The position numbers and the translations under genes were made by a program. The notes under the pieces were generated by a model. It saw nothing but the letters and a program-made list of their open reading frames with translations, made no database searches and was not told the DNA's origin. From NCBI RefSeq assembly GCF_964204865.1, contig NC_135260.1, positions 20,336,001 through 20,400,000 on the forward strand: a stretch of 64,000 nucleotides of DNA, read 5' to 3'. Source of the DNA: Styela clava (Eukaryota). Below are positions 15,868 to 40,146 of the stretch, piece after piece. Every line of letters starts with the position of its first letter. Position 1 is the stretch's first letter.

Positions 15868-15969
15868 TAGCGCTGCAAAAACTTTGGCATCAACAAACTC
15901 GTAGAAAACAACGTACAAAGCAACGAAAACAGAGACAAGAGAGAATTGTTAATTGGGTATGTTTTAATA

Positions 15970-16394
15970 CAGGGGTCGGCAACCTACGGCCCGCGGGCCG
16001 GATCCGGCCCGCGACGCTTCACTGAATTATAGTAACAAAACAGCTGTTTTGAAGATTATTTTTTTAACGTAACAGTATTTATTATGAGACACGTGCAGAT
16101 TGAATTATATTATAATTTAACAAGTATAAAATCCACAATTACTCGTTTAATGAGCCTATAATTTAATGATGATAATTAGACAAATGGCACCAAAACTCAG
16201 AAAGGTTGATGCTAAGATGCAATGCATCGAGGAAATAAAATCCATATTCTATTTGAGAGATGTATCACTGCTTGATTTTTTTTTTAAAAAGTATCATTCC
16301 TTCGGTTTTCAACTTTCTAAAAATATGTGAGGCACGCCAATGACTTGCAACCCGTAATTTTGTCCCGCGAGCGAAAAAATGTTGCCGACCCATG
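15970..16394. mobile_element. hAT MITE in the putative 5'-UTR intron of copy 1
   Basis: TIR CAGGGGTCGGCAAC/GTTGCCGACCCATG. TTTAATA is duplicated around it. Empty site GTATGTTTTAATATGTAGCC in units 2 and 3. Confidence 0.8.
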
Positions 16395-16785
16395 AAATTT
16401 AATATGTAGCCATGCAGGCCTATGTTCAATATTGTATCTGTCTGTTTTCTCGCAGATACATTTTTCGGCACAACTTGCAACTCCATTTCAAATAGAGCAA
16501 CCTCATTTTTTTTATAGCGAAGCAATTATCGATATTATAATCGTATACTCACTGGAATATATGCAGCGCTTTCCTTTGTTTATGACAGCAGTCGTCAAAT
16601 TGACGACAGCTTTTCAATCCGAGAATCGGGCTATCCTGGTAGGTATATGACTGCTCAATTACCACTTGTCACCAATTACCACTTGGGCTACTATTCAACT
16701 ATATTTGCAATATATATATATATATATATCAATTTTAAACGACTGATTTTGAAACAAGTTCTAATTATAGCTAGATAGATTAAAG

Positions 16786-18226
16786 ATGAACGTGGCAACA
16801 ATCTATCTACTTCTGGCGACAATTATGTTTGGAATTGAAGCAGCTCAATTTACTCAACTTAAATGTTTTCAATTTCGCTACAAATTGGGACAGCAGCGAT
16901 GCAAACCAGGTAAGATTTTTTCCTTCTAACAGAAAATCCTATTTATGATGAATAGGTTGTTTGTTTCCATTTTCCAAAAAGTACATTCACTACGGCCCAG
17001 GTACTTGTATAACTAGGATAATACTAAAAGCTGACCACACGTCCCGGTTCAGCCGGGGCAGCTTGACGAGAGTAAATGTCCAAGGTTAAGGCAGAATGAC
17101 AGTCATAAATATATCCGATACTAATATATACAAAATTGTTTTCTGTTTTTTTAACGTGTGCAGCCCATTTATCACTGATCCCATTTATCACCATATTGTT
17201 ATGTCATATTTATGATATTTTCAATATTTAAGTCAATTTAACATATAACGTCGACTTTAATGCCGTTTAAAGAAAGTTCTTGTGTTCTAATGAGTTGTAT
17301 ATTACTAATATTCATAAGAACTAAAAAATTTCCAAGTCTTGGAATAAAACCGCCCAATGTCCCGGTTTTTCATTCCGCATATCTGGTAAGCCCAATCAAA
17401 GGTAAAACACATGTGAATTTGTGTTTCACAAAAACCATTCCAAACACTGGTTTGTTGTTACAGAAAAAAGTTTCAAAGGTGATTTAGTACCATGCTACAA
17501 CTTATGTAACAAAGAATTGGTTAAATTTGAAGATTGTAATGAATATCCTGCTAATATGCATTGCTGCGTTCACGACTGCAGATGTGTCATCAGAGGAGGT
17601 GGGTACAAACAATAAGACAACAACTGATATCATCTCACTTAAGAATATACCTATATTCATGGGACTTGAAAAGTAGATAGAAAGCATGAAATAACATGGC
17701 AAAACTTATTCTTCTGCATTCCATTCCAGCCGGATTTGTTAAAATTCCACAAAACTACACGCTTTCTCTCGACGACGAAAAGATATCGCAGTGGATGAAG
17801 ACCGGAGTAGAAGAAGGATGTGAGTCAAAAAACAAATATTCTTCATCAGCAAAGATGACTGAGTCTGAAAATACCAAGACAAACCTGAAATTACCTATTG
17901 ACAAGCAAGATAAATATGCAATAATACAAGACGTTCAAACAACAGCAACAGCTACCGGATCAAGCGATAACAAAGAAACCCGGAACTCATCCATTGCTAG
18001 CCAAGAGGGAACTTCAAAAACACCAGAAGAAAAAGGCCCAGATAAAACAACTACCGCAAATACTGTACAAAGCAAAACGAGCACAAAAACAGAGGCAGTG
18101 AAGACGTCCGCGGCCAAATGTGCTACAAAAGAACATATCTTATCGCGAATTGCAAGTAAAATGACTGGAATATTCAAGCAGATGGGTGTTGGTTGGGAAA
18201 TGAAAGTCAACGATGGATGCAATTGA
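16786..18226 (+). CDS. Uncharacterised secreted cysteine-rich protein, copy 1 (251 aa; exons 16786-16909, 17464-17598, 17730-18226)
   Basis: GT-AG introns, both phase 1, join into one open frame: MNVATIYLLLATIMFGIEA signal-like N-terminus, then AQFTQLKCFQFRYKLGQQRCKPEKSFKGDLVPCYNLCNKELVKFEDCNEYPANMHCCVHDCRCVIRGAGFV...GCN. The structure is conserved in three copies. Confidence 0.85.
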
Positions 18227-18378
18227 AGGCACTTGCTACATTGTCTGTGAAATCTGAATATTCAAATTAATTCTATGTTTATGTCGTTCAATGTTAATTT
18301 CCTATCTTAAATAAAACTCACTAGTAGAACTCACTAATTGTCGAACCCCAAAGGATAGAGAGAAAAAAACTATCAAAT

Positions 18379-18787
18379 AACAAGATAAGCGATGCCCAAA
18401 TATGTGGACACGAAATAGTACGGGTATGTTGTCTGTAACTGTAGCCCCCGGGTACCATACCGCAGTATTTACGACTTCGTAGGACCTCAAGATAGATCGC
18501 TAATGCGAAGCCGGAACCGCCACAACGGGCGGGATTTTTTATTTGATGACGTCACCTCACACAAAAAACGAATCCGAGAGGCCACCGTAATTTTTGAAAT
18601 ACATAAAATGAAAAGCCCTCCAGCGAAAAATGCAATGTTTAACTATTGAAAATTAAAAGCGATTGATCCAGTAGTTAACGAGGAAATCAATATTTCTCTA
18701 CGGTCGCAACAAGCAGAGGAAGAATTCTAACAACATGATCCACAACAACATAATAACAAAACGATTCATTGTCCATTTCGTGTCCAA
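18379..18787. mobile_element. Interspersed repeat with subterminal inverted repeats (Helentron/DINE-like, tentative)
   Basis: TGGACACGAAAT near the 5' end and ATTTCGTGTCCA at the 3' end. The 3' motif CATAATAACAAAACG...CGTGTCC also occurs at ~13300, 20830, 28090 and 35220. Confidence 0.4.
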
Positions 18788-19479
18788 TTATCAAATGAAG
18801 AGTTTTATTTTTTACCCTAATGAAAAGAGCTCGTATTGAAACAAAGGCCTGTTTTAGATAATTATTTTGTTGTTTATTTTGTATTCTTTATCAAAATACC
18901 ACTCATATCGCCGTGAAACTACGGAAAATGATGCGTTTTGGCAACTGCACACGCTGCCGGAGTAATAGTTTCAAAAATATGCTTCGACTTCCACTGGCAT
19001 CTCGTCGCTTTGTCGCCAAGTTAGTACCTACACCAAAGTTATAAAAAGAAAAGTTTAACAGTTCATTCGAGATATTAGGGAGACGATTAATGTGAACATG
19101 GCAAAAACTCACGAAACATATCTCACCGATCTCCCAAACACGGCTGCATCAACGATATATACGACTGTTGAGGTCATTAGAGTCAGTTACCATCCAAACA
19201 CAAATACATACATACGTGTCTGCAAGGCAATTGGGAATTTGCATAGCAAGTCAGGGCCACGTATATATTTATATATCGTTATAATGGTTAAATTAATCTC
19301 ACAAATTTGCGTATACTAACCATATGACAGAAAAAGGGCAAGATAGAAATTAACTTTCGACAATCTATCATATATATCCAAATTGTATTACCTTGGTTTT
19401 GTTTAGAAGTAATTTAGATATAATATATTTCGTGAATTGAAGTTTGAATTTTTTATATAAATATGTTTTGAAATTGCCG

Positions 19480-20000
19480 AGAATATCATTCCAATCTGAG
19501 TCGCATAATTTTTTTAGACTTTCGAGCAAATTTAAGATTTGTTCGTGAAATAAAGAATACCTCACTAGAGCGTGTATTATACGAATGGACACAGATTTCC
19601 ACAATCAGTAAGGTGTATCGAAAGCCTCGAGCAACATGTTATGAATAAATTCAAACATTAATTTCGCAACTTTATAAATATACACATCGTTTAATTTTAA
19701 AAGATGCATATGTTTATAAATGGGACTAATACTATGACGCAAATGAGTATTAGTCAATAACTCTAAGAGCTCTATTTTGTTAAATCGGCATGAGTCTGCT
19801 TTCACAAGCACGACAGACCCAAGCCACAATTCCCTATTGCAGGTGGAAACAATATAGCAAAAAATAAAATTTCGCATCACTTTTCAGGGAGAATTTTTTT
19901 TATCCTTGTCATGATTTCCACCGTCCTTGACAATTCCATATTTAATTGGTTGACGTGGTCGTTCGAATTAAGTTTGGTATTTAATAAATACAGTTCGGAC
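19480..20000 (-). mobile_element. Degenerate LINE (CR1/L2-like) ORF2 3' remnant, also present in units 2 and 3
   Basis: Fragments LNSNDHVNQL..LSRTV.IM.RIKKILP, FYFPLQYGIVAW (unit 2) and LLKLNDVYIYKVAKLMF are typical of the region after the RT domain in LINE ORF2. Frameshifted. Confidence 0.65.
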
Positions 20001-21927
20001 CAGTAAACTTGGAGTTGGATTGGGACTTCTATTTCCTTATTATTATAGAAATAATTTATTAATTGCACTTGCGTATTGTCTCGTAGAACTCGTGACACGT
20101 CGGTCAACAAAAATTAATGATTGTTCCAGACAGATAATCGATAAACCATAGTAAAGCAAAAAATGGTGCAATCAGTAGTCTTCGTCTTGAGGTGCTCAAT
20201 GTTCTGAATATGTGTGCTGAGATTACCGCGTCAGATATCTGCCAATTTCACGACTTCTTTGCGAGAAAACCCAAGTACAATCAGACAAGATAGATTACGA
20301 CGTGAGTGAACGCTGGTCTCTGATTAATAAATTGGAAACCCGGAATACAAAAATTGTCGCATGGCGTCGAAGAGTCGGAAACCGAATCCTGTTATCGGAT
20401 TATTTTGTTTCCGGATTCTCGGGATTCGGTATTCTGAATTGCCCATGACACAGTATATAGTATACCAATGGAACTCCAACTTGTATACATTGTGTCATTT
20501 GTACTGCATGCTATAATTTCTCACAAGTGCGTGCCCCCTTGCCACTTTGTACCTCGTCTAGCATTTCTCCCGTTTGCTGGGCGAAACGTTATAATCCGAG
20601 ACACGAGACGTATAGCCTACTTCATAACCCTGATCTCATAAATCATTGTAAATCTGAAATGTATTTTTGGTCATCGTTTTGGGTGGATTCATCACAAAAA
20701 TATGAAGTCATGTTCTGAATGTAATTAGTCTGCTTCACAAATTTGAAAAAAAATATATGAAGAGAAAGCGATTTTTTTTCCTAATAACAATCTGGAAAAA
20801 AAAAAGAGTTCCAACAGTAACATAATTACAGAACGTTTCATAGATCCATTCCGTGTCCAATAAACTGTCACAACAAATACCTTTCATGATCATTGCAATT
20901 GCAAATAAAATACAACCCACAGAAATGTTATATATTTAAATATACATACCGTATTTTTTCACGCCTGTCAGCCCCAACAAACTCTACAAAGTAGGGACTG
21001 ATCTAGGAAGTGACATTGTTTGGAAAGACCGGATCCTATCTATAATCCTACAAACCACAATGCTTCCCACTGATCTGATCTTCTTGTCAGCATTTATTTA
21101 GAAGTAAAGCTTTTTATAATTCTAATTAAAGTATGGTTTACATTACATTATACAAAATAAATCCAAGAGCTTTAGTGAAGCAACGTATTTCGTGTCGCCT
21201 TTATTGTCATTATTTTCCGTATATATCAGCAATAAAAACAACTTACCGATTAGCTCCAAATTGTAACGTAATTTGCATTTTAGCGCAAAACCTGCACACT
21301 TAAAACCGACAAGTATGCGGTGTCACTGTCATTTTCAAATTGCAATTTCAAAAATAATTTCTTGCTCAAAAAAAAGTCACAGGAACTAAATAAAATAGTG
21401 GTTCTCAGACAGTGTTAACGAGGTTGATGGTTTAATTAATATTATAAATAACATAAAACATCAACAATTATTATTCAAAGCGTACATAATTAAGAGCAGT
21501 AAGTTCTAAATTAATTAACGAGCAAAATGAGAAAATTCCCTAAAATACGCCTGCTTTTTGCGCCAACCCTAAACAAATAAGACCAGGTGTGATATACGAA
21601 AAAGGGTTTAACCAGGTAATATATATGCAATCTTTCAACAGAATCGCATATTTAATAATACTTGTTCTTCAATTGACACGTTGGTACATAAATGCTGCTA
21701 TTGTAGAAGAAATGGCTACATTTTCAAAATAGTTTTAATGTATATAATGAGTAACAGATTGCATATTGGGCGCAATGTCGCCTAAATAAATATTCCACTT
21801 CGGTTTATTTCGCCAACAGATGAAAATCCTCCCTGACCAGGTGAACAATTGTCAAAGTTATTGGATTTTAGTAGGGGTTCATGTTATAATTCGCATGTAA
21901 ACGAGTGACAAGTACAAAGATATAAAC

Positions 21928-23164
21928 CAGTGGTTCCCAACCGCCGGTCCGCGAAGGTTTTTTGCCGGTCCGCGAGAAATTTCATTTTGTTGTTTTTCTA
22001 CCGTCTAAATCGCTTTACCGAAGCCGAAAAGACGAACTTACGTTGGTTTATTACCCAATTTCTCTCCCGCCGTCATATTGCTGTTTGACACGAGCGGTAT
22101 GATCCGGCGACGTCTTGGCCCCGGTGTAATTACACTTTTCGCTTTTTCGGTTCCGATTGATGGCGAAAGCGCTCCGTCAAATCTCGCAAGATTCAGAAAC
22201 CTGAAAATCAACATGCGGGCTTTTTCCGTTTTGCATGCTTTTTTGATCAATATTACCATCCAAATAAAAGGTTATGAATATTTCTTTGTTAAAACCAGAA
22301 AACTGTCAAGAACAGTATAATATTCCAGAGCTTCACCATGACACCCAGCGAGATATGAACTTGACCCTTCAGGTGGTCACGAAACGCGCAACAAAGCGTG
22401 GGCCGCTGAGATATTTTCCGGGTGATGCACAGCATGGTTTTGAGCCCGGTGCCAAGTTAGCAACGACTTTATCATTGTAATGTAAATTCATTTTGTTTGG
22501 GGCGTCGATCAACTGCATGATGAATTCATGGGATTGATATGATGAACCCGATGAAACCTCTACTTTACAGTCCAGGTTTATAAAAGAATCATTGTTAAAA
22601 TTCATTCTTGAGCTCTCTTGATAACGAATACCCATCGCTTAGTAATCGAGCAATCAAACTGTTGTCTGAATTTTTCAACCAGTTACTTCTAGCTTTAATT
22701 ACAACGAAGCAAATAAACTGACTGTGATCCGCTGCAGAGCTACGTGTTGCAAAACTATTTTTGATGCCTCGTTTGCAATCCTGTGTTAGAAACGAAACAG
22801 CAGCAAAATTAGCACTTGAGTTAATTGTGTTTCTACATGATTTGGCATGTACATGTTTTTTATGCGATATGTGTGCCTCTTCACGCATGATGGGTGACCA
22901 GCACCGCATTTTATTACGCAAACATATGTTATTATTTTATGTTCCACCCATTTCAATTTTTGGCCGGCACAATATTTGATAATTTTTCCTCATGTGAAAT
23001 GGTTTAAGTGTACCTTATTTACCCGTAAAAGCGTAGTGATTGCCCGACATTACGCAGATATAGGTTATTATTTTCTGTTCCACTCATTTCAATTTTTGTC
23101 GGTCCGCGAGTACATTTTATTTGATTTTACCGGTCCGCCGGGATAGAAAGGTTGGGAACCGCTG
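21928..23164. mobile_element. Non-autonomous hAT element
   Basis: TIR CAGTGGTTCCCAACC/GGTTGGGAACCGCTG with a perfect TSD ATATAAAC. An inverted relative lies at 32184-33234. Confidence 0.9.
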
Positions 23165-24573
23165 ATATAAACTACTGACGCAAATTCCATTGGATTCCGA
23201 CATTGAAAAATCCATTTTTGGGAGTATAAAAAGTCATTTGTTCATAAGCTTAGATGTCGCAATTAATTCTATGAAGCGAAAATTTACCAACAACAATTTC
23301 GGTTTTAAAACCATTTGAGTAAAAATATGGTTCTTAGCGTTTGAGAAACACCGCATTATCACACTGACGTCATACCCGTTCAATTGTGTGGTTACTGGGT
23401 ATTTCTATGACATGCTTATGCTTCAGGAAATAAGACAATTGCTTGTTTCATTACAACTTCGAACGTGACAACTCTTTCAGGTCCACCGTCACAAATATGG
23501 GTTTCCGTCAGGAACAAGCATTTTTGTATCTCATATAATTCAACAATCTCAATTTAGGTCGTAACGATATTAGATGGTAGAATACCCCTTGGATATACTA
23601 CAATATACAGTCTACGTATGGTCGAAGACGTCGCTGAGGCAATTTACTCGCAGTCAAAAAACGTTCGCTTTTTGCGTTCAGTCCCCAATATTATCCAACA
23701 CTTTTGAAAATAATTTGAAAAATTGTATTAATTCCCTTGCGTAAGATATCCTGATCCATGTATTCTTCGCGAGAAGATCTTGCATTAGGCACTACTAATA
23801 CAACATTACTTCAAATGTCTGAATCTTTAAAGATGCGGTATCAGACGTCTTCGACTAGTATATTACTTTTACGTTGAATGTCATGGTCAGTGTTGTGACG
23901 TTATTGAATGGCATTTTTAGTTTGAATAATGAACGATTCCTATAATTTGTGGTGTTTTAAGCTCTATAATCATTTAAACTCTATATCATGCGCTATAAAT
24001 ACTGACCTTTTTGAGAATAACTAATTCAGCAAACCTTAATCCATTTGACGAAACTGACCTCAAAGTGACGCTAAATATAACAATTTGTCTCCCACTGCAA
24101 TCAACGAATGATTAAATTCTTAATGAAGATATTATAAAATCTTATTTTTTCGAAATAATCGCGTGAGCAAGATATATTATAAATAGCGCTGCAAAAACTT
24201 TGGCATCAACAAACTCGTAGGAAACAACGTACAAAGCAACGAAAACGGAGACAAGATAGGATTGTTAATTGGGTATGTTTTAATATGTAGCCATGCAGGC
24301 CTATGTTCAATGTTGTATCTATCCGTTTTCACGCATCCGTTATTGCTATTATAGTCGTATACTCACTGGATCCATAAGTGCATTCCTTTGCTTTATGACA
24401 GCAGTCGTCAAATTGCCGACAGCTTTTCAATCCGAAAAGGGAGCTATCCTGGTATATGACTGCTCAATTACCACTTGTTACCAATCACCACATAGGCTAC
24501 TATTTGCAATATATACTAATTTTTAAACTATTGATCTTTAAACAAGTGCTGATTACAGCCCAATAGATTAAAG

Positions 24574-26012
24574 ATGAACGTGGTAACAATCTGTCTGCTT
24601 CTGGCGTCAATTATGTTTGGAATTGAAGCAGCTCAATTTACTCAACTTAAATGTTTTCAATTTCGCTACAAATTGGGACAGCAGCGATGCAAACCAAGTA
24701 AGATTTTTTGATTCCAACAGGAAATCCTATTTATGATGAATAAGTTGTTTGTTTCCATTTTCCAAAAAGTACATTTACCACGGCCTAGGTACTTGTAGAA
24801 CTAGGATAATACGTAAATACCGATCATACGTCCAGGGACAGCTTGACAAAATCGGGACCGTCCCGCTCGGTGGAATCAAATGTCCAGGGATATGGCAGTT
24901 ATAAATATATCTGATATTAATATCTACAAATATTTTTTTAACGTGGGCAGGCCATTTATTTATCACCATATTGTTATGTCATAATTATGATATTTTCAAT
25001 TTTTACGTCAATTTAACATATAACGTGGTCTTTAATGCCGTTTAAAGGAAGTTCATCCAATGTGTTGAATATTACTAATATTCATACTAACTAAAATACT
25101 TTCCAAGTCTCGGAATCGAACCAAGATTTGCCCAATGTTCCGGTTTATTGTTTCGTATATTTGGTAAGCCTAATCAAACGTAAAACACATGTGAATTTGT
25201 GTTTCCTAAAAACCATTCCAAACACTGGTTTGTTGTTACAGAAAAAGGTTTCAAAGGTGATTTAGTACCATGCTACAACTTATGTAACAAAAAATTGGTT
25301 AAATTTGAAGATTGCAATAAATATCCTGCTAATATGCATTGTTGCGTTCACGACTGCAGATGCGTCATGAAAGGAGGTGGGTATAAACAATAGGACAACA
25401 ACTGATATCATCTCGCTCAAATATATATATATATATATATATAACGGACTTACAAAGCACGAAGTACAAAGCATGCAATAACATGGCAAAACTTATTCTT
25501 CTGCATTCCATTCCAGCCGGATTTGTTGAAATTCCCCAAAACTACACAATTTCTCTCGACGACGAAAAAATATCGCAGTGGATGAAGACCGAAGTAGAAG
25601 AAGGATGTGAGCCAAAAAACAAATATCCTTCATCAGCAAAGATGACTGAGTCTGAAAATACCAAGACAAACCTGAAATTACCTATTCACAAGCAAGATAA
25701 AGATGCAATAATACAAGACGTTCAAACAACTGCAACGGCCATCGGATCTAGCGATAACAAAGAAACCCGGAACTCATCCATTGCAAACCAAGAGGAACTT
25801 CAAACACACCAGAAGAAAAAGGCCCAGATGAAACAACTACCGCAAATACTGTACAAAGCAGAACGAGCACAAAAACAGAGACAGTGAAGACGCCCGCGGC
25901 CAAATGTGCTACAAAAAAACATTTCTTATCGCGAATTGCAAGAAAAATGACTGGAATATTCAAGCAGATGGGTGTTGGTTGGGAAATGAAAGTCGACGAT
26001 GGGTGCAATTAA
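24574..26012 (+). pseudogene. Secreted cysteine-rich protein copy 2 (exons 24574-24697, 25242-25376, 25517-26012), with a 1-nt deletion near 25795 giving an early stop at 25887
   Basis: Exons 1 and 2 are intact with conserved splice sites. CAAGAGGAACTTCA here versus CAAGAGGGAACTTCA (copy 1) and CAAGAGGAAACTTCC (copy 3). The ancestral frame resumes to GCN-stop at 26012. It could be a truncated gene or an assembly error. Confidence 0.75.
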
Positions 26013-26546
26013 TGGCACTTGCTACATCGTCTGTCAAATCTAAATTTTCAAATTAATCCTATGTTTGTGTCGTTCTATGTAAATTTCTTATCTTAAAAGT
26101 ATCGTGGGACTAGCCGTAAATATGATTTGAGCTTTTAAAAATACATATTGATGACAAGAACAGAATCAAGTTGAAGACATCGACGTTGTTGTAAACTTCA
26201 CAAATTGTGCACACAGCAATACACGTTGTTAAGCAGTCGATGAGTTATGCTGCATTTATAATTTGCATATTTGTTGAAAGTGGATTTTCTTGTTTGTGAA
26301 ACAAATCCAACGATAGCGTTTATAGAATCAATACCCTCTTATCGGCACTGGTACTGTCTTGTCCGAAGCAAAAGTCCGGTTTGGTTCGAAATTTGGCCAA
26401 ATCGAGTCGCCGATATAAATATGTCACTCCGCATTTAAGTCAATTCCTTGTTTTAGTTTATGTGTATTCCGAAGCCGGAACCGCCACAATAGGCGCAATT
26501 TTTAATTTGATGATGTTACCTCACACAAAAAACGAATGCCATAGAT

Positions 26547-27914
26547 CAGGGGTGGGCACAATTTTTTAGTATAAGAGCCGCATGCTGCAAGTCAAAGCTT
26601 AAGAAGAGCCGCAGAATATTATTAAAATACCATGAAAAAATAAAAATAATTGAAGTACCAAGATTGCTGATTATGAAAATTTGACAATGATAAATTCAGA
26701 ATCAGTTCCGGTAAAAATATATTGTTCAAAATGTTATTGCAAAATCGTATATTCAATGTCATCCAACAAGTGCGCAGTTGATGCTGTTTTTCTTTATGAT
26801 ATCTCAAAGTAGAATTTGCATATCGAGCACTGAAAATTTGTCACAAAAATAACATTTAATAACGGAATCGGGTTGTACTGAAATACTTCCATATGTCCGA
26901 AGCACGCTGCATATCTTGTACAGCAGAGTGATCATGAAACTATATCGATTTGTGAATAATTATAGGGGTTACGGGATAAGATCACGCGAAATTGCTTTGT
27001 TATTATTGTGACGTAACATGATAAAATTATAAATTATCACGTCAAATGTCACGCTGTGGTTAACCGGTTAATTTTACCCGCATAACGGTTAAAGTGTTTT
27101 CCCTGAAATACCCAGCCCTAATTACGAAGCCATATCAGGAGACTTGTGTGTTCCCATCATTTCTGTAAGTTTTCGAAAGTCTGGGCGATATGTAGTCAAT
27201 GCGGTACGAATCAATTCTGTCACATGTACATTTGTTACAACCTACACGAAATTTTGATATTATGAGGTTCATTGCTGAGACTAACGACTCACAGCAGTAT
27301 GTTGTGCTAAAAATAGGAAGGATCCGTACACTAGCCAATTTAACTTCAGGGTATTTATCGTGTGGTACCTGCCAAATGATAAGATAAATTACTGCTGTCT
27401 TTTTAGTAACAATTTGAACTCATTTAATTTGTGTTTCCTTATAGCTGATTTACGAGGGTAGTCTCGTAAGAAGTTTTCATGATTCGTTTCATGGTGCCGT
27501 TTAACATTGCTGACTTTATTCTGACTTAGTAGCTTATGGCAGATTGAGCACAAAGGTTTATTCTCCTGACTGGTAAATGCGTATTCTTCTTCCCATTCTG
27601 ACTTGACAACTCTGTTCTCATATCGCACAGTAACTTAGATTAACTGACCGCAATCAAGCTGCAATACCGCCGACGCATTAATAAACATTGACCATTTTGA
27701 CGAAAGATTTGCTGACTTGACTGACTTAAATTCAAAATTCAACGCTACAACGATTTTCATACTAAAACATAATTTGTCCTAATCACCGACGAAAACTTCT
27801 TCACAACTTTTAATTAATTAACAACAGTTTGCATTACAGTTTTTCTCTTAGTTAAAATTTGGATAATAATTTATGTTAGCGAGAAAAGCCGCACAAAAAG
27901 TGTGCCCACCCCTG
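26547..27914 (-). mobile_element. Internally deleted hAT transposon (SPIN/GTF2IRD2-like transposase remnants)
   Basis: TIR CAGGGGTGGGCACA with a perfect TSD CCATAGAT. N-terminal zinc-finger fragment (WEEEYAF...PLCSIC...NVKRHHETNH, 27389-27628) directly abuts a C-terminal dimerisation fragment (IFSTTYCCESLVSAMNLI). Confidence 0.92.
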
Positions 27915-28315
27915 CCATAGATAAAGTCTACCGACATTTTTGAAATAAATAAAAGCAATAGCCATCTAGCGAAAAATGCAATGTTCAACCATAAAATTTT
28001 AAAGCGATTGGTCCAGTAGTTAACGAAAGAAAATTTTTCCATACGGTCGCAGCAAGAAGAAAAATACTAACAACGTGATCAACAACAACATAATAACAGA
28101 ACGATCCATATGTCCACTTCGTGTCGAAGTATCGCATATAAAGTTTTATTTTTTTTACTTAAAAGAAAACAGCTCGTATTAAAACAAACCTATTTAAAAT
28201 GATTATTTTGTTGTTTCTTTTGTATTCTTTATTAAAATACCCCTCATATCGCCTTGAATCTAAGGTAAATGGTGCGCTTTGGCAACTGCACACGCTGCCA
28301 GAATGACGCATGCTT

Positions 28316-28441
28316 CCGAAAACAAGTAACAGGCTAACAAATCCCATACCCGACCTGGACTGGTAACCGGACGAGAGCCCGTGGTTCGCCATTTAAGCCG
28401 TGTTATCGATTTTCCTCACCCATATGTAAATCCTATCCTAT
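28316..28441 (+). mobile_element. SINE 3' fragment
   Basis: Matches the 3' half of the 1837-2184 SINE, including the GTAAATCCTATCCTA tail. Confidence 0.75.
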
Positions 28442-29200
28442 TTCAAAAATGTAAAAAAAAGTTGCATCGTCGCCAAGTTAGTACATAACCAAAGTTATGA
28501 AAAGAGATTTTAACAGTTCATTCGCGATATCAGGGAGACGATGATCAGTGTGAACATGCCAAGAGAGTCACGAAACATATTTCACCGACCACCGAGATAA
28601 AACAACTACCGCAAATACTGTACAAAGCAGAACAACCACAAAAACAAAAAATCGTGAGGAAATGAAGGGCCACATATATATATTCAGTAATTTATTTTTT
28701 CACCAACCATGCTGAAGGTACACACTTACAAATTAGAATAAATTATATATGGAAAAATGGCATTCCAGGGTGAAGGGACACACGGGAAACCAATAAATGG
28801 TTATCGAGCAGTGGTACCCAAAAAAGTCTAACAGATCATTAGAAAAAATGTCGAACAATATATTAAAAGTGATAAAAAACACTATACATGTCTAGAGTCT
28901 CTAGACGACCTGATATATCCAGCAGTCGCGTGTTTCCACATAATGAAAACGACTACTAGCACAGTCAGTTGAGGTAACCAAGAAGATTATATTAATCTCA
29001 CAAATTTGCATATACTAATCATCAATCAAAAAATCCATATGACAGAAAAAAGGCAAAATAGAAATTAAATTTCGACAATCGAACAATAGGCTATATATCT
29101 ATTATATATATCCAAATTGTATTACCTTGTTTTGTTTAAAAGTAGTTTAGATATAATATATTTCGTGGATTAAAATTTGTATTTTTTATATGAATATATA

Positions 29201-30348
29201 GTAGGTCGGGGTAGTTCGGACACCCGGGGTATGATGGTCAGTCAAAATAAAATCCTCCTACTAGCGACACCTCGCGCTTTTTCGTCGCTCAAAACGCATC
29301 GCGTGAAAGAGCGACATCATGCGAACAACGACAGAACCAAGATTTTACATTTCAGGCTCGATAACTTACAAGGCGGTGCTTTTTGGGGAAGGGGTGTTTC
29401 TGTTGGGACAGAAAAACGTCAAATTATAGAGTCCCATGGTGGCGAAGAATAATTTTAGCCGGAAAAGTCTGCGAACTCGGTTCTATTTTGTTTATTTGTT
29501 GAAAGTAGTTGCATTAGATCGAATAAATTCTTTAGCAGACTGCCAGTACTCATTTTTGGGTTGGCAGGGTCACTTAAGAGGTAGGGTGGATTTTGAGTGG
29601 GGGAGGGGGGAGGATTTTTTTCAATATAGTCTGTTGGGAATGTCAATGGGCCGTCGTCATCGAAACTTATAAATAATTATTTTTTGATACTAAGTACCCT
29701 TTTACAACAAAGATCAAAAGCACACTCATCGCCATATTTATATTGGATCTCTTAGAAGTTAAGCCCGGCGTAAAATTTCATCTTACCCCGTCAAATTATT
29801 TTTTCCATATGCGTATAAAATACGCCCAAGGTTATGCCAAGAAATTACAAAATAAATACTTCTAGAGGTAGTCCATGTAAAGAAGATATAAAAATTGCAG
29901 TTGAAAAAGCGCAAACTAAATTTTAAATTTCTAGTTTTCCTAAAACTGTTCAAACTCTTTTGAAAATTGCCCTGTTATGTCCTTTATGGGGTAAGACGGA
30001 CATACTTTTTGATATGCAAGAAAAGTGATCTGTTTAAAAAAAATTTAAGAGACATAATCCTGGGCCATCTAGGCGTTGATCGAAATCTTATGACCGAAAT
30101 CCTAGACACCATCAAGTTAATTTTGGTGTGTGTCCGTCTTTCCCACAAAGTGTCTAACTTACCCCGATATTTTTTTAGCTGAAAATCGGGCGTAAATTCC
30201 GATTCGTTGCTATGGCAACAATGTGCAAATGTGGCAAGATAGCTGGAGGGTGGGTGCATGAATCAATAGTAGAACGAATGCAGCTGCGACATTATTTGAA
30301 GAGTTATTCAAAATAACTTATTAGTGGGTCCGACTTCCCCCGACCTAC
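29201..30348 (+). mobile_element. Pogo/Tigger-like deletion derivative
   Basis: TIR GTAGGTCGGGG.AGT.CGGAC/GTCCGACTTCCCCCGACCTAC flanked by TA(TA). Remnant MPRNYKINTSRGSPCKEDIKIAVEK at 29834 resembles a psq-type HTH N-terminus. Empty site in unit 1. Confidence 0.75.
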
Positions 30349-31282
30349 TATATTTTGAAATTTCCAAGAATATCATTCCAATCTAAGTCGCATAATTTTT
30401 AAAGACTTTCGAGCAAATTTGAGATCTGTTCGTGAAATGAAGAATACACCACTAGCTGCTGAAAGTGTATTGTACGAATGTAACACATATAGCCACAATC
30501 AGTAAAGTGTATCGAAAGCCTCGAGCAACATGTTATGTATGAATTCAAAAATCAATTTTGCTTTATAAATATACACATCGTTTAATTTCAAAAGATGCAT
30601 ACGTTTATAAATGTGACTTATACTAAGTTGCAAATGAGTAATAGTCAATAACTCTAAGAGCTCTATTTTGTAAAAACAGGCGGGGGTATGGCATGAGTCT
30701 GCTCTCACAAGCACAGTCCCAAGCCACAATTCCATATTGTAGGGGGAAATAAAATAACGAACAATAAAATTTCGCATTACTTTTTAGGGAGAATTTTTGG
30801 TACTCCTGGAGCGGTGTCTCCAAAATGTCGTGTCCCACTTGTCCCACGTGTCCCCCTTGTATCACGTGTCCCACTTGTACCACGTGTCCGACTTGTACCC
30901 TTTTCACGTTTCTCGCTTATTATCGATATTGTTTGCTTCATATCTTTTGAACTAATACAAAATCGCATTATTTTCTATGTACTAAAAATAAGTAAATTTG
31001 ATGTAGAATAAAAATATTTCTACTTCTAATGTGGGATATTTTAGAAACTCGCAATTAAATAGCTTAGAAATGCCCCTTTTCACGTTCCTCGCTAATTATC
31101 GACACTGTTTCATTTGTATCTTTTGTACTAATATGAATGCGCATAATTTTCTATCTCATAAAAATAAGTAAATTTATTGTACAATAAAAATACTTCTACT
31201 CCTAATGTGGGATATTTTAGAAAATCGCAGTTGAATTGCGGTGTCTCCAAAATGTCGTGTCCCACTTGTCCTACTTGCCACT

Positions 31283-31547
31283 TGGTACACGTGGGACGAA
31301 TGGTACACGTGTTACATGTGGGACACGTGGTACAAGTGGGACACGTGTTACATGTGGGACACGTGGTACAAGTGGGACACGTGGTACAAGTGGGACATGT
31401 GGTACAGGTGCGACACGTGGTACAAGTGGGACACGTGGGACAAGTGCGACAAGTATGACAAGTGGGACACGTGGTACAAGTGGAACACGTGGTACAAGTG
31501 GGAAGAGTGGGACACGTGGTACAAGTTGGACACGTGGTACACGTGGG
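31283..31547. repeat. 18-bp minisatellite GGGACACGTGGTACAAGT (9-bp sub-period)
   Basis: Directly visible array of roughly 14 units. The inverted form lies at 30830-30900. Confidence 0.9.
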
Positions 31548-34246
31548 CAGTGTTCCCTCTAAGAAACTTTCACACTGCGCAAATGTTGTTTTTACTGAGC
31601 AAGACTGTTTTAACGCTGAACAGAATCTTAAATTATTTGCAAACTTTGTGAAATGTTACAGTAGTAGCCTATTATTTATTATCGGAATGCAAAAGAGCAC
31701 ACATTTAATTTAAATAGCTTCTCATTGTTTTCGTGCTTTTCCAACGTTTATACACTTTGTCCATGTTTGTTGTGTTTACTGCTGAATCAAGTGACAATCA
31801 TCCAAAGTACAATACTTTATGTACAATCTCGACATTTTTGTTGTTGAAATATCAATGCTTTCATCAACTATCAGGGTATGAAAAATTTTGTTTGTCTTAT
31901 GCTTTGTAAGATCTTTTCCCTGGCGACAGAGTCTATGCTCTTCAAAAATTCAAAGCCCTAATTTTTGCTTCAACATGAATGTGGCAATTTAATGTATTTT
32001 GACACACGACTATTCATTACCTTGCGGGACAATATTGATGAATTTAGCTTAACACGTGGTAGAACACTATCTATGTGAGGCTCTATTTCAAAATTTCACT
32101 CTCTTCAGCGGTAGGTATTGCGGTGAGAAAGTTCGAACAACCTCTTTCTTCCACGTTTCGCTTCTGAGTTAATGCAACTAGTGCAGTGGTTACCAACCTT
32201 TCTAACCTGACGGACCGGTTAAATTAAATAAAATGTATTCGCGGACCGGCAAAAAGTGAAATAGGTGGACACACAAAATAATAACATATATTTGCATAAC
32301 AAAATGCAGTGCTGGGCACCCATTTCGCGTAAAAAGTGCACTCAGAAAACACTTCACATAAAAAACATGTACACGCCAAATCATGTACAAACACAATTAA
32401 CTCTAGCGAGTATTTGCTGTTGTTTCGTTGCCAATACAAGATTGCAAACGAGACATAAAAAAGGTTTTGCAACACCTAGCTCTGCAGCAGCTCACAGTCT
32501 ATTTCTTTGCTTCGTTTTAAGTAAAGCTAGCGATGATAAAGTTTTTTCGTACAAGTAAGTGGTTGAATATTTGGACAACAGTTTGATTGCTCGATTACAT
32601 AGCGATGGGTATTCGTTATCGAGAGAGCTCAAATATTGTGACAGTGATTCTTTTATTAATCTGGACTGTAAACTAATGATTTTATCGGGTTTATCAAATT
32701 ACCTCTGCAGTCGATCGAAGCCCCAGACAAAATGAATTTATAATGATAAAGTAGTTGCTAACTTGTCACCAGGGGGTCCTGCTGTGCATCATCTATGAAA
32801 TATCTCAATGCTTTTGTTGCACGTCACATGACCACCTGCTGGGCCGCAACAAGTTCATATCTTTCTGGATTCCAAGGCATACTCTGTAATATTATACAGT
32901 TATTGACTGTTTTCTGGTTCAAACGAAGAAATATTCATAACCTTATATTAATGAAGAAAAGCATGCAGAACGGAAAAAGCACGCATGCTTATTTCCAGGT
33001 TTATGAATCTTGCCAGATTTGACGGAGCGATTTCGCGATGAATCGGAAACGAAAAAGCGAAAAGTGTGATTACACAGTAATATGACGGCGGAAGAGAAAT
33101 GCGTAATGAACCAACGTAAATCCGTCTTTTCGCATTCGATAAAGCGATCGAGACGGCAGGAAATCAACAGAACGAAATTTCTTGCTGAACGGCAAAAAAG
33201 CCTCGTGGAACGGCCCGGCGGCTGAGAACCACTGGTCCAGTGCGTCAATATGCGTCAACAATTTTCTGATTTGAATGGCGTTTTAGATCGTCAACTTCCC
33301 ATTCCCAACCACGATTTGCCTTTTCAAATCACTATTAGGTGCCACTTCCCGACAAACTTTGCAGATTATCACATTCCTTGACGCGGAATAGCGATGAATT
33401 TCGGAAAGTTTAGAAGTTCTGTTTAACTTTAACTACGGGTATCACGATTGCAAATTAGTGTCAAACACTCCACTGTTGCATTTAGCCATTCCACTTTAAA
33501 ATCAATGTTCTTATTTTCAGCCATGCTACCCGGAATATACATTTTACTCACACGTCAGATAAATAACACTAGTATATTGGTTTTATTTAATAAACCACTC
33601 ATTCTAGTGACCTGCTGAATATTAAAACGCTTAAAACCCTTTTAGTAATTTCAGGTGAAACATACTTATTATATAACATCGGTATCATTCAGTATAACCT
33701 CATGGTCACGTGTGTCACAATCTGAAGATTCAAGAGCCGACGGGGCTAGCACTCGCTTAAACTCAGTCCTCCCTCAAATCCCAACTAGTTTAGCCCAGCC
33801 ATAAGGCTGCGAGCGAGCAACCAACAAATTTCCTGTAACAAACAGTGGGCACCAGCTTTGCAACATTTGAAACCTATTAAATTCTAAACCTTCTATATCT
33901 CCATCTGTATTGACTACACTATAGGGACAATAACAAGATTTTGCCGGGTCGACAACACGAAATTCAAAGCGCACGATGAAAATTTCAAAATGCGGCACCG
34001 GCTCACCGGCATACAGAAATAATGTACTTGAGAGCTTGACATACACGTGTTTGACATCACAATGACCAGTGGTCACCAAAATACGCGTGAAACATAGAGC
34101 GAGCATTCTAGTTAAGGGTTAATAAATATGACATATGAAATAGGAGCCACGTTTTGAAAACGAAATTGCAACTGCGCGAGAATGAGATTGTACTGCGCAA
34201 ATGTTCTGTTGGCACTGCGCAGTTGCGCAGCTTAGAGGGAACCCTG
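31548..34246. mobile_element. hAT element nested in the foldback element
   Basis: TIR CAG(T/G)GTTCCCTCTAAG with an 8-bp TSD CACGTGGG/CACATGGG. Confidence 0.8.
32184..33234. mobile_element. hAT element of the 21928-23164 family, nested and inverted
   Basis: TIR CAGTGGTT.CCAACC/GAGAACCACTG. Internal sequence is homologous to the reverse complement of 21928-23164. Confidence 0.85.
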
Positions 34247-37200
34247 CACATGGGACAAGTGAGACACGTGGTACAAATGGGACACGTAGGACAAGTGGTA
34301 CACGACATTTTGGAGACACCCCTCCTGAAGTATGCGCACCAAGATGTCGCATAACCTGAAGCCTAAACTGGTACACAACCTGAGTTCAGGTTGTGCGCCA
34401 TCTTGGTGCGCATTTTTAGCCTTGTCAGGATTTACACCGTCCTTGACAATTTCAGATTTGATTGGTTGACGTGGTCGTTCGAATTAAGTTTGTTATTAAT
34501 AAATACAGTTTGAACCAGTCAAAGTAAACTTGGACTTGGATTGGGACTGCTATTTCTTATTATTATAGGAATGATTTATTGATTGCACTTGCTTATTGTC
34601 TCGTAGATCTCATGGCACTTCTGTCAAAAATTAAAGATTGTTCCAGTCAGGTAATCGGAAAATCATACTAAAGCTTTAAAAAGGTGCAATCGGTAGTCTT
34701 CGCCTTGAGATGTATTCAATGTTCTGAATATCAGTGCTGAGATTATCGCGTCTGATGTCTACAGCTTTTACGGCTTACTTGCGAGAAAATTCAAGTATCA
34801 TCGGACGAGAGAGATTACGAAGTGAGTCAACGCTTGTCTCTGATTAATAAATTGGAATCCCGAAATACAAAAATTGTCGCACGCCGTCGAAAAGGCGGAA
34901 ATCGAACCCTGTTATCGGATTCTTTTGGATAAATTGCCCATAACACAATATAACAAGTGGGACAAGTGCGTGCCCAATTTGTACCTCGTCTGGCATTTCT
35001 CCCGTTTGCTGTACAAAACGTCATAATGAGACACGAGACGTAGACTACTTCATAACCCTAATCTCATACATCATTGTAATTCTGAAATATACTGTTGGGT
35101 ATCGTTTTGGGCAGATTCATCACAAAAATATAAAGTCATTTTGTATATCTAACAAAAATATATGAAGAGAAAAGCTATTTTTCCACAATAACAACCGGGA
35201 AGAAAAGTACCAACAATAACATAATAACAAAACGTTCCATATATCCATTCCGTGTCCAATAAACTGTCACAACAAAACCCATTTCATGATCATTACAATT
35301 GCGAATAAAATACAACTTACAGAAACGTTATATATATATATATATACGGTATTTTTTTCACGCCTGTCACCCCAAACAAACTCTGCAAAAGCAAGTGATC
35401 CAGGAAGTGCCATTGTTTGGAAGGATCGGATCCTATCTATAATCCTACAAACCACAATGCGTCCCACTGATCTGATTTTCATGTCAGCATTTATTTAGAA
35501 GTAAAGATTCTCATAATTCTAATCAAAGTACGGTTTACATTAGATTATACAGAATAAATCCAAGAACTTTAGTGAAGCAAGGTATGTGTATCGTACAACG
35601 TATTCGTGTCGTCTTCGTTGTTATTATTTTCCGTATATATCAGCAATAAAAAATAAGTTACCGATTAGCTTCTAATTGTAACGTAACTTGCATTTTAGGG
35701 TAAAACCTGCACTCTCAAAACAGCCAATTATGCAGTGCCATATGTTATATAAAGTAGTAAATTTCAATAGCAACTTCAAAATTATTTTCTTGTTCAAAAC
35801 AAGGTCACAAGAACTTAGTGAAATAGTTGTTCTCCGACAATGTCAAAGAGGTTGAAGATATAATGAATATCAAAAATAACATAAAACATCAACAATTATT
35901 ATTCGGAGCGTAAAAACTCTAGATAACAAGTTTTAAATTAATTATTGGGCAAAATTAGAAAATTTCCTAAAATACGCTTGGTAATTGCACTAACCCTAAA
36001 CAAATAGGACCAGGTTTAAATACGGGAGGAATGAAAGAGTTTAACCAAGTAATATACAGGCAATCCTTCATTGTATAGTATAGTATAATAATATTTGTTC
36101 TTCAATTGACACGTTGGTTACATAAATACTGCTATTGTTGAAGAAATGGTTACATTACCAAAATAGTTGCAATGTATATTAGTAACAGATAATATATTGG
36201 ACGCAATGTCGCCAAAATAAATATTCCACGTTGGTTTATTTTGTCAACAGATGAAAATCCACCACGAACAGGTAAACACTTGTCAAAGCTATTGGATCAG
36301 TAGGTCTTCATATTATAATTTGCATGTAAACGAATTATAAGTACAAACATATACTGACGCTTATTGCATTGGATTCCGACATTTGAAAATCTATTTTTGG
36401 GAAAATAAAAATGCACTCCTTCATGAGCTCATATGTCGCACATGACGGAAATTCTATAAATTTATCGAAAATTTACAAACAACAATTGAGGTTTTAAAAC
36501 TCATCGATTGAGTAAAATATGGTTATCAGCGTTTTGAGTAACACCGCATTACCACACTGACGTCATACCCGTTTGATTGTGGTTACTGGGAATTCCTATG
36601 ACATGTTTATGCTTCCAGAAATAAGACAATTGCTTTGTTTCATTACATCAAATTTTGAATGTTTGTACTTTTTCAGGTCGACCATCACAAATACGGGTTT
36701 CCGTCATGGACAAGAACTTTTGTATCTGATATTATTTAGCAATGTCCATTGAGGTCTCAGCCTGGTTCCTCAATATAAACTATATTATACGGTAGTATGG
36801 CCATTGGAGATACTCCAATATACATTTTACGTATGTTCGAAGAAGCCTCTGGATCAATTTGCTCGCAGAAACGTTTGCTTTTCGTTTTCAGTTCGCCAAT
36901 ATTATCCAACACTTAGAAATAATTTGAAATATTGTAGTAATTCCCTTGAGTAAAATATCCTGACCTAGATATTTCCCCGCGAAAAGATCTTGCAGTAGGC
37001 ACTACTAATAATACAATATTACTTTAAATATCTGAATTTCTAAAGATGCAGTTTGAGAAGTCGTCGACTAGTTTAATACCGTGAAGGTCACGTCAGTGTT
37101 GTGACCTTGTTGTATGGCTTTTTAGTTTAGTTTATGAACGATTCCTACAATTTGTGGTGTTTTAAGCTCTATAACAGGCGTTATTCATAGTGAACTTTAT

Positions 37201-37832
37201 GAGAATAATTAATTCAGCAAACCTTAATCCATTTGACGAAACTGACCTCAAAGTGACGCTAAATATAACCATTTGTCTTCCACTGTAAGCAACGAATGAT
37301 TAAATGCTAAAAGATATTCTGAAATCTTTTTTTTTTTTTGAAATATTTGAGTGAGCATGATATATTATAAACAGCGCTGCTAAAATTTTGGCATCAAGAA
37401 TCTCGCAAAAAAACACCGGAGAAAACAACGAAAGCAGAGGCAAAAAAGGATTGTTAATTGGGTATGTTTTAATATGTAGCCATTCGGGCCTATGTTTAAT
37501 ATTGTATTTATACGTTTTCACGCAGATTAATTTTTCATCACAATTTACAACTAAGTTTCAAATACTTTTAAATGAACAACATCTTATATCGAAGCAATTA
37601 TCGATATTATAGTCTTATAATCACTGGATACTTATCCAGTGCATTCCTTTGCTTCATGACAGCAGACGTCAAATTGACGACAGCTTTTAATCCAAAAAAC
37701 GGGCTGTCCTGGTATATGACTGCCCAATTACCACTTGTCAAATTAGGCTACTAGTTAATTATTTGCAATATATATCGATTTTTAAACGATTGATCTTTAA
37801 ACAAGTGCTAATTACAGCCCAATAGAATAAAG

Positions 37833-39294
37833 ATGAACGTGGCAACAACCTATCTACTTCTGGCGTCAATTATGTTTGGAATTGAAGCAGCTCAATTTAC
37901 TCAACTTAAATGTTTTCAGTTTCGCTACAAATTGGGACAGCAGCAATGTGAACCAAGTAAGGTTTTTTGATTCCAACAGGTAATCCTATATACGATGAAT
38001 AAGTTTTTTAATTCTATTTTCCAAAAAGTACATTTACCATGGCCCAGGTACTTGTGAAACTAGGATAATACGTATAACCTGACCATACGTCCCGGTTTAG
38101 CCGGGACAGTTCGACAAAATCGGGACCGTTTCGCTCGGTAGACTTAATGTCCAGGGTTACGACAGAATGGCAGTCATAAGTATATCCGATATTAAATATA
38201 AAATTGTTTTTATTTTATTTTTTGACGTGTGCAGCCCATTTATCACTTTTATCAACGTAATGTTATGTCATAATTAGTATATTTCCAATATTTACGTCAA
38301 ATTAACATAATAACATCGGCTTTATTGCCGTTTGAAGAAAGTTCTTGTTTTCCAATGATTGTTATATAATTAATATTCATACGAACTAAAATTAAGTCTC
38401 GGAATTGAACCGCCCAATGTCCCGGTTTTTATTCCGCATATCTGGCAATCCTAATTAAACGAAAAACACAAGTGAATTTGTGTTTCATAAAAAACATTTC
38501 AAACACTGGTTTGTTGTTACAGAAAAGGGTTTCAAAGGTGATTTAGTACCATGCTACAACTTGTGCAACGAAAAATTGGTTAAATTTGAAGACTGCGATA
38601 AACATCCCGCTAATATGCATTGCTGCGTTCACGACTGCAGATGCGTCATCAGAGGAGGTGAGTACAAACAATAACACAACAGCTGATATCCTCTCGCTTA
38701 AATTAAATATATATATATATACAACGGACTGAAAAGTAGGAAGCATGCAATAACATGGCAAAACTTATTCCTCTGTATTTCTTTCCAGCCGGATTTGTTG
38801 AAATTCCTCAAAACTATACACTTTCTATCGACGATGAAAAATTATCGCAGTGGATGAAGACCGAAGTAGAAGAAGGATGTGAGCCAAAAAACGAATATCC
38901 TTCATCGGCAAATATGACTGAGTCTGAAAATACCAAGGCAAACCTGGAATTACCTATTCACAAGCAAGATAAAGATGCAATAATACATGGCGTTCAAACA
39001 ACAGCAACAGCCATAGGATCAAGCGATAACAAAGAAACACGGAAATCACCCATTGCTAGCCAAGAGGAAACTTCCAAAACACCTGAAGAAAAAAGCCCAG
39101 ATAAAACAACTACCGCAAATACTATACAACGCAGCACGACCACAAAAACAAAAAATCGAAAGGCAGTGAAGACGTCCGCGGCCAAATGTGCTACAAAAGA
39201 TCATATCATATCGCGATTTGCAAGAAAAATGACTGGAATATTCAAGCAGATGGGTTTTGGTTGGCAAATGAAAGTCGTCGAAGGGTGCAATTGA
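37833..39294 (+). CDS. Uncharacterised secreted cysteine-rich protein, copy 3 (254 aa; exons 37833-37956, 38523-38657, 38789-39294)
   Basis: Same exon sizes and phases as copy 1 (donors GTAAG and GTGAGT). All 12 Cys are retained. There is a 3-codon insertion in the linker. Confidence 0.85.
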
Positions 39295-39692
39295 TGGCAC
39301 TTGCTACATCGTCTGTCAAATCTGAATTTTCCAATTAATTCTATGTAAATTTCCTATCGTGAAAGTATCGTTTGACTAGCTGTAAATATGATTTGAGCTT
39401 TTAAATACATATTATCAACAAGAACGGAATCATGTTGAAGACATCGACGTTGTTGTAAACATCACAAATTGTGCACATATTTGCTGAAAGTGGATTTCTT
39501 GTTTTAGGCGTAAACAAATCCAACGATAACGTATGCAAAATCGATACCCGTTGTCGTCACTGGAACTGTTTTGTCCGAAGAAAAGGTGGTTTGGTTCGAA
39601 TTTGGCCAAATTGAGTCGTCGATATAAATATGTCACTCCAATTGCTAATATGAATTGATTCCTGTCTTTAGTTTATATATATTTCTCAACGC

Positions 39693-40146
39693 GGGTCTAG
39701 TATAGTTTAGTACCACAAGTACTTCCAGTTGACGTATCAAAACGAATTTTGCCTATGTTATTCCTAACCCTCATCTGACTATGCCATCCAAAAATTACGT
39801 CGATACGACGTCACAAACACGTCATAGGGCTTGCCAAAGTACAATTACGATCGCCTGAAATGGCATCTGCGCCGCCGATAACGAACTCGCTCACGCCGGC
39901 GATCTCTCTCCTATCGTGATCGTTATGACGGGAAAACGAAAGAAATAGCTTACTCGATTTCGGGTGATCATCTGCGCGTTTTGGACGACCATCCGCATAC
40001 TTTGGTGGGCCTTATTACGCCAATGTGACGTCAAAATGACGTAATTTTTTGGTGATGTAGTCAGGTGGGGGTTAGGATTGGCATATGCAAAAATTGTTGA
40101 GCCAGGCCAACTAGAAGTGCATGTGGTACTAAACTATACCAGACCC
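39693..40146. mobile_element. MITE with long TIRs and an 8-bp TSD (Merlin- or Mutator-like)
   Basis: GGGTCTAGTATAGTTTAGTACCACA/TGTGGTACTAAACTATACCAGACCC termini with TSD CTCAACGC. Confidence 0.85.

Follow-up and report, generated by a model that had tools for sequence, protein, structure and literature searches.

Taxon-restricted secreted families are common in invertebrates, and an unnamed one is not surprising in itself. The described cysteine-rich systems nearest to the genes treated here are recognised by short motifs. Ly6/uPAR domains have an N-terminal L-x-C-x2-C and a C-terminal CC-x4-CN, the WAP four-disulfide core has CC-x3-C-x3-C, ShK domains end in C-x3-C-x2-C, and insulin/relaxin has the A-chain motif CC-x3-C-x8-C and dibasic sites that flank the connecting peptide. 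In proteoglycan 4 (PRG4, lubricin), a mucin region is flanked by somatomedin B and hemopexin domains. The window analysed here, a stretch of 64,000 nucleotides from the ascidian Styela clava (C14:20336001-20400000), contains three collinear plus-strand genes for a cysteine-rich protein that is predicted to be secreted. They belong to a real, expressed family (the public runs that carry its spliced contigs are guessed to be RNA), which is annotated yet undescribed and combines a Cys-rich domain without assignment with a familiar secreted-protein design.

The family resembles Ly6/uPAR proteins in its predicted secretion, small Cys-rich domain and CC pair, and in the LKC start of the window copies. 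However, L-x-C-x2-C and CC-x4-CN each occur in 0/16 family proteins, Pfam gives no Ly6, uPAR or toxin match in 15 proteins, and the family's first Cys is absent in half of the members, in agreement with the earlier sequence-only reading that the Ly6/uPAR spacing does not fit. The segment D/N-C-x5-8-CC-x3-C resembles the C-terminal half of WAP, but the family ends in C-x-C where WAP has C-x3-C; the WAP motif is found in 0/16 proteins and Pfam gives no WAP match. The ShK motif is likewise found in 0/16, Pfam gives no ShK (PF01549) match, and a sub-threshold Atlas lead for P0008 (0.81) is reached by shuffled proteins a third of the time. Three genes on contig C18 were formerly named "proteoglycan 4-like" or "repetitive proline-rich cell wall protein 1-like" in RefSeq, names that reflect composition only; neither somatomedin B nor hemopexin is found in P0011 and P0015, once named after proteoglycan 4. 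In overall design (predicted signal peptide, disulfide-type ends, variable Thr/Pro/Lys spacer and gene amplification) the family is like lubricin/PRG4, insect peritrophins, Drosophila Sgs3 and cnidarian minicollagens. The likeness is architectural only, with no somatomedin B, hemopexin, chitin-binding or collagen match in the family.

Wider searches gave the same picture. A Pfam scan of 15 members (E ≤10 for 4, E ≤1 for 11) and three homologues from outside this genome returned no family over its cut-off. A weak DUF7772 match (E 0.044) in one of the 15 was not reproduced in the genome and was dropped, and Extensin_1 matched one of the 15, P0013, with 24.5 bits against a cut-off of 105. In PDB sequence searches, P0001 had 0 matches, the full profile gave merely compositional matches to histone H2B/zuotin (E ≥2.5), and the exon-2 profile gave only a chance 13-residue match to PLD3. 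The ESM Atlas held no usable match for P0001. AlphaFold2 runs with 14 and 23 sequences reached a mean predicted local distance difference test (pLDDT) score of 41.7 and 40.1, too low to judge any fold; with these poor query models, Foldseek (0 matches at E ≤10) and VIA (best Z 2.5, with the head barely tested) are uninformative on fold. A literature search found no description, grouping or naming of the family, and six LOC ids returned 0 papers. An identity with the endostyle genes CiEnds1/HrEnds2 was considered, and these names had 0 occurrences in the 20 papers listed. The conserved domain of ~100 aa has no match in Pfam, PDB or 1.84 billion representative proteins save itself and three outside fragments. 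The sequence-only reading that the protein belongs to no known family therefore stands, although its genes had already been annotated in RefSeq.

Three spliced genes in the window

In each gene, the first two coding exons measure 124 and 135 nt; the third measures 497 nt in copy 1, 371 nt in copy 2 and 506 nt in copy 3 (starts and boundaries in Table 1). All introns of the three copies (6/6) are GT-AG and phase 1. Copy 1 encodes 251 aa and copy 3 encodes 254 aa, each with 12 Cys, and the intervals between Cys in the window copies are 11, 12, 3, 9, 8, 0, 3, 1, 34, ~100 and 32. The gene models are letter-identical to RefSeq P0016 (LOC120347062, copy 1), P0003 (LOC120347690, copy 2) and P0018 (LOC120347698, copy 3), and RefSeq holds three accessions with one identical protein for the copy 1 gene. 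The three genes are thus already annotated as uncharacterised Styela clava proteins and are otherwise undescribed. Models, contig joints and RefSeq identity together bear out the sequence-only prediction of three collinear three-exon copies, with its exon sizes, intron phase and Cys spacing. Its product of ~250 aa with 12 Cys is correct for copies 1 and 3, whereas copy 2 encodes 209 aa without the last two Cys.

Splicing was compared over window positions 16400-26300 in contigs of four of 15 public runs (X1, X3, X4 and X5, from three studies). The RNA nature of these runs is a guess only, but the joints sit at GT..AG. Intron 1 of copy 1 (554 nt) is skipped by contigs of X1 and X3, intron 2 (131 nt) is skipped by contigs of X1, X3, X4 and X5, and a single X1 contig spans all three copy 1 exons with 0 mismatches. 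Copy-2-type introns are also skipped, one of 544 nt in X4 and one of 140 nt in X4 and X5. A chance explanation of the models is rejected because the contigs skip introns at GT..AG joints, and the junctions predicted for copy 1 and the copy 2 type were recovered in this way. The read comparison covered copies 1 and 2; the copy 3 junctions rest on the RefSeq model. An alternative exon-2 donor 4 nt downstream, present in all three copies, would yield a 91-aa product, and it is absent from the joints listed in contigs of the four runs.

A 5' non-coding exon precedes the coding exons of copy 2, with a donor GT at 24273 and an acceptor before 24559. The same donor is found upstream of copy 1 (15956) and copy 3 (37461). 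In an X3 contig, the copy 1 acceptor (16770) is joined to sequence like that at 21745, which has a counterpart 5' of copy 1 near 14470. This 14470-type sequence probably provides copy 1 with a further 5' non-coding exon, used as an alternative to the first.

Copy 2 lacks one base near 25797, which leads to an early stop at 25887 and accounts for its shorter product. An earlier RefSeq version of the copy 2 gene, P0001, is intact (251 aa) and identical to window copy 2 at 166/178 positions. Among its last 71 residues, 68 match the shifted tail of copy 2 and 63 match copy 1. A contig of X5 runs ungapped through the frameshift site, and at 8/8 codons where P0001 departs from copy 1 in that span, the contig departs from copy 1 as well. 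On the basis of the P0001 tail and the ungapped contig, the frameshift is read as either an allele or an assembly error.

Architecture, distribution and evolution of the family

Alignment of 14 full-length members reveals a shared plan, namely a hydrophobic N-terminus, a Cys head of ~100 aa, a spacer, and a tail whose two Cys enclose 32-38 residues, with total lengths of 180-346 aa. Eight Cys of the head are invariant in 14/14 aligned members and the terminal Cys is also present in 14/14, while CC-x3-C-x-C is found in 16/16 proteins. The N-terminal hydrophobic stretch occurs in all 14 (it is weak in the N-truncated P0005), and no mature protein of the 14 has a 19-residue window above Kyte-Doolittle 1.0. 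By hydropathy, the proteins are predicted to be secreted without a membrane anchor, which supports the hydrophobic N-terminus and secretion proposed from the sequence alone. A tail helix is predicted in both AlphaFold2 runs, at the low mean pLDDT given above.

Cys1 and Cys4 co-occur in 15 of 32 proteins and are both absent from the other 17; Cys4 is also absent from both outside exon-2 fragments. Because they are present or absent together, their distribution suggests a Cys1-Cys4 disulfide, with the qualification that one change on the tree suffices and the co-occurrence counts as one event. The 12 Cys described earlier as invariant are so in copies 1 and 3; family-wide, 10 of the 12 are, and Cys1 and Cys4 are optional.

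The spacers are 39-198 aa long, rich in Thr, Ser, Lys and Pro, with 13-30% Ser+Thr. Their net charge is +16 to +62 (at the upper end with Pro/Lys repeats) in eight proteins from contigs C18 and C19, and -1 to +6 in six proteins from C14, the contig of the window. The window copies are a derived subgroup with a charge-neutral spacer.

Five queries (the three own exon-2 sequences and two outside proteins) gave the same count of 27 exon-2 matches genome-wide. Seven of these are on C14 and one is on C19, while C18 has five in the interval 12.81-12.85 Mb and 14 in the interval 14.35-14.41 Mb. The search for further paralogues thus found 27 matches, not three, and their spread over three contigs and four clusters does not support the earlier description of the family as locally expanded. 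Upstream on C14 there are three intact minus-strand copies (191, 217 and 224 aa), a broken copy immediately before the window, and one more exon fragment. The largest array (L037-L043, C18:14349650-14409150) comprises 14 genes in alternating-strand pairs with a period of ~9.15 kb. Its core is 98.7-99.3% identical over 9-19 kb; 11/14 genes are full length, two encode 166 aa and one encodes 139 aa. It represents amplification without diversification. The array reflects either amplification in the very recent past or, in part, an artefact of assembly. Divergent paralogues that share 25-41% identity with the window type are intact and keep all eight core Cys.

A profile search of 1.84 billion representative proteins at E ≤0.001 returned 12 proteins, comprising eight family members, three Logan fragments and one compositional match. 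The Logan fragments are only about 30-50% identical to the Styela clava genome, and breaks in their alignments coincide with intron positions of the family. For these two reasons, the alignments indicate that at least one further organism has the family. A basic Lys/Pro spacer and a tail as in the family are found in the outside homologue P0035, whereas P0036, a subtilase-type protein, matches solely by its Lys-repeat tail and was dropped. No named protein from another species appeared in the homologue and profile searches, whose libraries are assumed to include Ciona-type proteomes. The family is taxonomically narrow; a strictly species-specific version of the lineage-specific origin proposed from the sequence alone is not supported, given the three divergent outside homologues. 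A horizontal origin was rejected: 0/8 prokaryote pattern matches were confirmed, and of four viral and three metagenome loci with matches, four were read and all were treated as chance. Three of the loci read are antisense to a long phage open reading frame (ORF), and one lies in a short frame without a signal peptide or matching exon structure.

Between copies 1 and 3, the head has a nonsynonymous divergence (dN) of 0.056 and a synonymous divergence (dS) of 0.326 (Fisher p 2.5e-5), with dN/dS ~0.17. The corresponding dN and dS are 0.104 and 0.110 for the spacer (p 1.0), and 0.114 and 0.052 for the tail, which offers few sites (p 0.68). Head dN is lower than dS in 15/15 pairs among six C14 copies, the pairs being non-independent, and head identity among the window copies is 85/98 and 89/98. 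The Cys head is under purifying, not diversifying, selection.

Genomic setting of the window copies

The three genes lie in tandem duplication units that include several kilobases of upstream DNA, are about 74-86% identical in self-BLAST and are interrupted by repeats (Table 1). To the left of the cluster are CLP1 and a gene of UBAC1 type, and to its right is a TM6SF-like gene. The UBAC1-like and TM6SF-like neighbours had been named from the sequence alone, and the assignments are confirmed by Pfam for the UBAC1-like gene and by a PDB match (E 3e-30) for the TM6SF-like gene. CLP1 and the UBAC1-like gene (5864-7171, + strand, and 8420-9592, + strand) are each one long open frame, with a coding part that is apparently intronless. 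Exons of a mitochondrial carrier gene (PF00153) lie at 58842-60600 (+ strand), and a fragment of a hAT transposase dimerisation region lies at 42408-42791 (+ strand; Pfam E 7.8e-7).

Table 1. Features of the gene cluster in window coordinates
Feature	Position	Strand	Basis
Three tandem duplication units, about 13.2-20.4, 20.5-34.9 and 35.0-40.9 kb	13229..40932	+	self-BLAST
Copy 1 coding exon 1: predicted signal peptide (residues 1-20), Cys1, Cys2	16786..16909	+	joint in X1, X3; = RefSeq P0016
Copy 1 coding exon 2: Cys3-Cys9, CC-x3-C-x-C motif	17464..17598	+	gene model, contig joints
Copy 1 coding exon 3: Cys10, 99-aa spacer, tail Cys11-helix-Cys12, stop	17730..18226	+	gene model, contig joints; helix from predicted structure
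AATAAA, likely poly(A) signal of copy 1	18310..18315	+	contig ends at 18309 (X1), 18329 (X4)
Copy 2, 3' part of 5' non-coding exon	24229..24272	+	X5 joint, 44 letters on exon side
Copy 2 coding exon 1	24574..24697	+	gene model; joint in X4
Copy 2 coding exon 2	25242..25376	+	gene model, contig joints
Copy 2 exon 3: coding up to 25887, tail segment in another frame to about 26010	25517..26010	+	gene model; RefSeq P0003
Copy 3 coding exon 1	37833..37956	+	gene model; = RefSeq P0018
Copy 3 coding exon 2	38523..38657	+	gene model; RefSeq match
Copy 3 coding exon 3 (254-aa product)	38789..39294	+	gene model; RefSeq match

The second duplication unit carries inverted copies of a 1.1-1.2-kb interspersed repeat at 21926-23164 and 32184-33236, and many divergent contigs of the public runs match the repeat at 21926-23164. 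The region 30801-34332 contains short degenerate units (about 9-18 bp, at 31240-31550) and related inverted stretches at 30801-30899 and 34247-34332, with another copy at the window end; it looks like a nested non-autonomous element. An imperfect palindrome of 450 bp (39693-40146) lies directly downstream of copy 3.

Outside the window, a second TM6SF-like gene (L032:3010-3666; C14:20259010-20259666, + strand) has the opposite orientation to the one in the window (46602-47360, - strand). Inverted TM6SF copies thus enclose the C14 cluster, whose family genes are on the minus strand at one end and on the plus strand at the other, an arrangement that is possibly an inverted segmental duplication. 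Between the two halves lie long ORFs (L027-L028, C14:20296110-20312853) with a putative resemblance to long terminal repeat (LTR)-retrotransposon gag/pol.

Possible functions

From architecture and evolution, we favour a structural role for the secreted protein, which would bind or cross-link components of tunic or mucus; we give this reading about an even chance. The disulfide-bonded head (as predicted) and the two-Cys helical tail would anchor or join molecules, and the low-complexity spacer would form an extended, glycosylated or charged tether. The spacer may be O-glycosylated, basic spacers would bind anionic glycans or cellulose, and the many near-identical copies would serve dosage. The recent 14-copy array points to selection for quantity. 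PMC3390340 describes house matrices of ascidian relatives that include proteins unlike any known.

Several observations weigh against such a structural role. The Pfam scan of 15 members recognised no carbohydrate-binding domain. The charge argument does not cover the window copies, whose spacers are neutral, and Cys domains separated by low-complexity stretches are found in signalling and immune proteins too. When the head is compared with intron divergence (0.136), the ratio is ~0.4 (p 5e-4), and purifying selection is milder by this yardstick, though still significant. The tail of the window copies is amphipathic (moment 0.53-0.66; p 0.000-0.028 versus shuffles) with a net charge of +3 to +4, which fits a defence peptide equally. 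In PMC7540406, the S. clava tunic is described as low in sulfated galactan, which weakens an electrostatic-cement model. A bolder version of the structural reading is quite unlikely. There the head would bind cellulose or a tunic glycan through a disulfide-rich fold not seen before, and the proteins would correspond in animals to the extensins of plants, as basic Pro/Lys rods that are joined via their two-Cys tails, bundle cellulose fibres and contribute to the hard, leathery tunic of this sea-squirt group.

An alternative is that the members are secreted innate-defence proteins. Microbes would be attacked or agglutinated by a polycationic spacer, by the amphipathic tail or by both, and the Cys head would bind the microbial surface. 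We consider this possible but, on balance, unlikely. The window tail helix, predicted in both structure runs, is cationic and amphipathic beyond shuffles, the majority of members are strongly basic, and defence families typically evolve by birth and death that leaves broken copies. As described in PMC10608444, penaeidins join Pro-rich and Cys-rich domains, and the helical styelins and clavanins are products of S. clava; the family shares with such peptides a Pro/basic region with a Cys-rich domain and, in the window copies, a predicted amphipathic helix. It differs from them in Cys order and number, and its helix is stapled between two Cys. Tail amphipathicity is not significant in 7/7 C18 proteins tested (p 0.34-0.81), the tail has no conserved release site, the proteins are 3-6 times longer than these peptides and at 180-346 aa far above their size, and the head shows no excess of amino-acid change. 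A signalling ligand or precursor is very unlikely. Its head and tail would be disulfide-folded together, and the spacer would be a disposable connecting peptide or a matrix-retention tail, as in insulin/relaxin or heparin-binding growth factors. The conserved ends and the neutrally evolving spacer of free length would suit this, and sulfated glycans could be bound by basic spacers. However, the insulin A-chain motif is found in 0/16 proteins, dibasic sites occur in 2/16 after Cys10 and 0/16 before Cys11, and neither dibasic nor furin sites are conserved at the spacer ends. In addition, the Pfam and PDB searches gave no ligand-family match, and a signalling gene would not usually be present in 14 nearly identical copies.

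Copy number itself might mostly reflect passive duplication. Unstable DNA with many repeats would then hold a single functional type of secreted gene, and a large share of its copies would be redundant or on the way to decay. The units do carry kilobases of flank and many repeats, and broken copies include window copy 2, the copy just 5' of the window, the C14 exon fragment and 3/14 in the C18 array. Nevertheless, deep divergent paralogues remain intact with all eight core Cys, transcripts of both copy 1 and copy 2 types are present (in the runs guessed to be RNA), and the explanation accounts for copy number, not function; we regard it as highly doubtful. The least probable reading is a factor for self/non-self or gamete recognition, with specificity supplied by paralogues or alleles. 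The family is secreted (as predicted), multicopy and taxonomically narrow, and the difference between P0001 and copy 2 indicates that alleles differ. However, conservation is highest in the head, the copies of the largest expansion have been homogenised, and no membrane anchor was found by hydropathy. Purifying selection on the head and the near-identical copies disfavour both allorecognition and gamete recognition, which the sequence-only reading had listed as candidate roles; of its other candidates, matrix or adhesion and immunity are retained here.

The family carries a natural disulfide on/off pair, if the inferred Cys1-Cys4 bond is correct. To our knowledge, the proteins that organise cellulose in tunicates, the sole cellulose-making animals, are poorly known. 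If the structural binder that we favour is a cellulose organiser, the family would matter for the hardness of the tunic, for fouling and for biomaterials based on cellulose; if its members are defence proteins, they would represent a new ascidian antimicrobial design.

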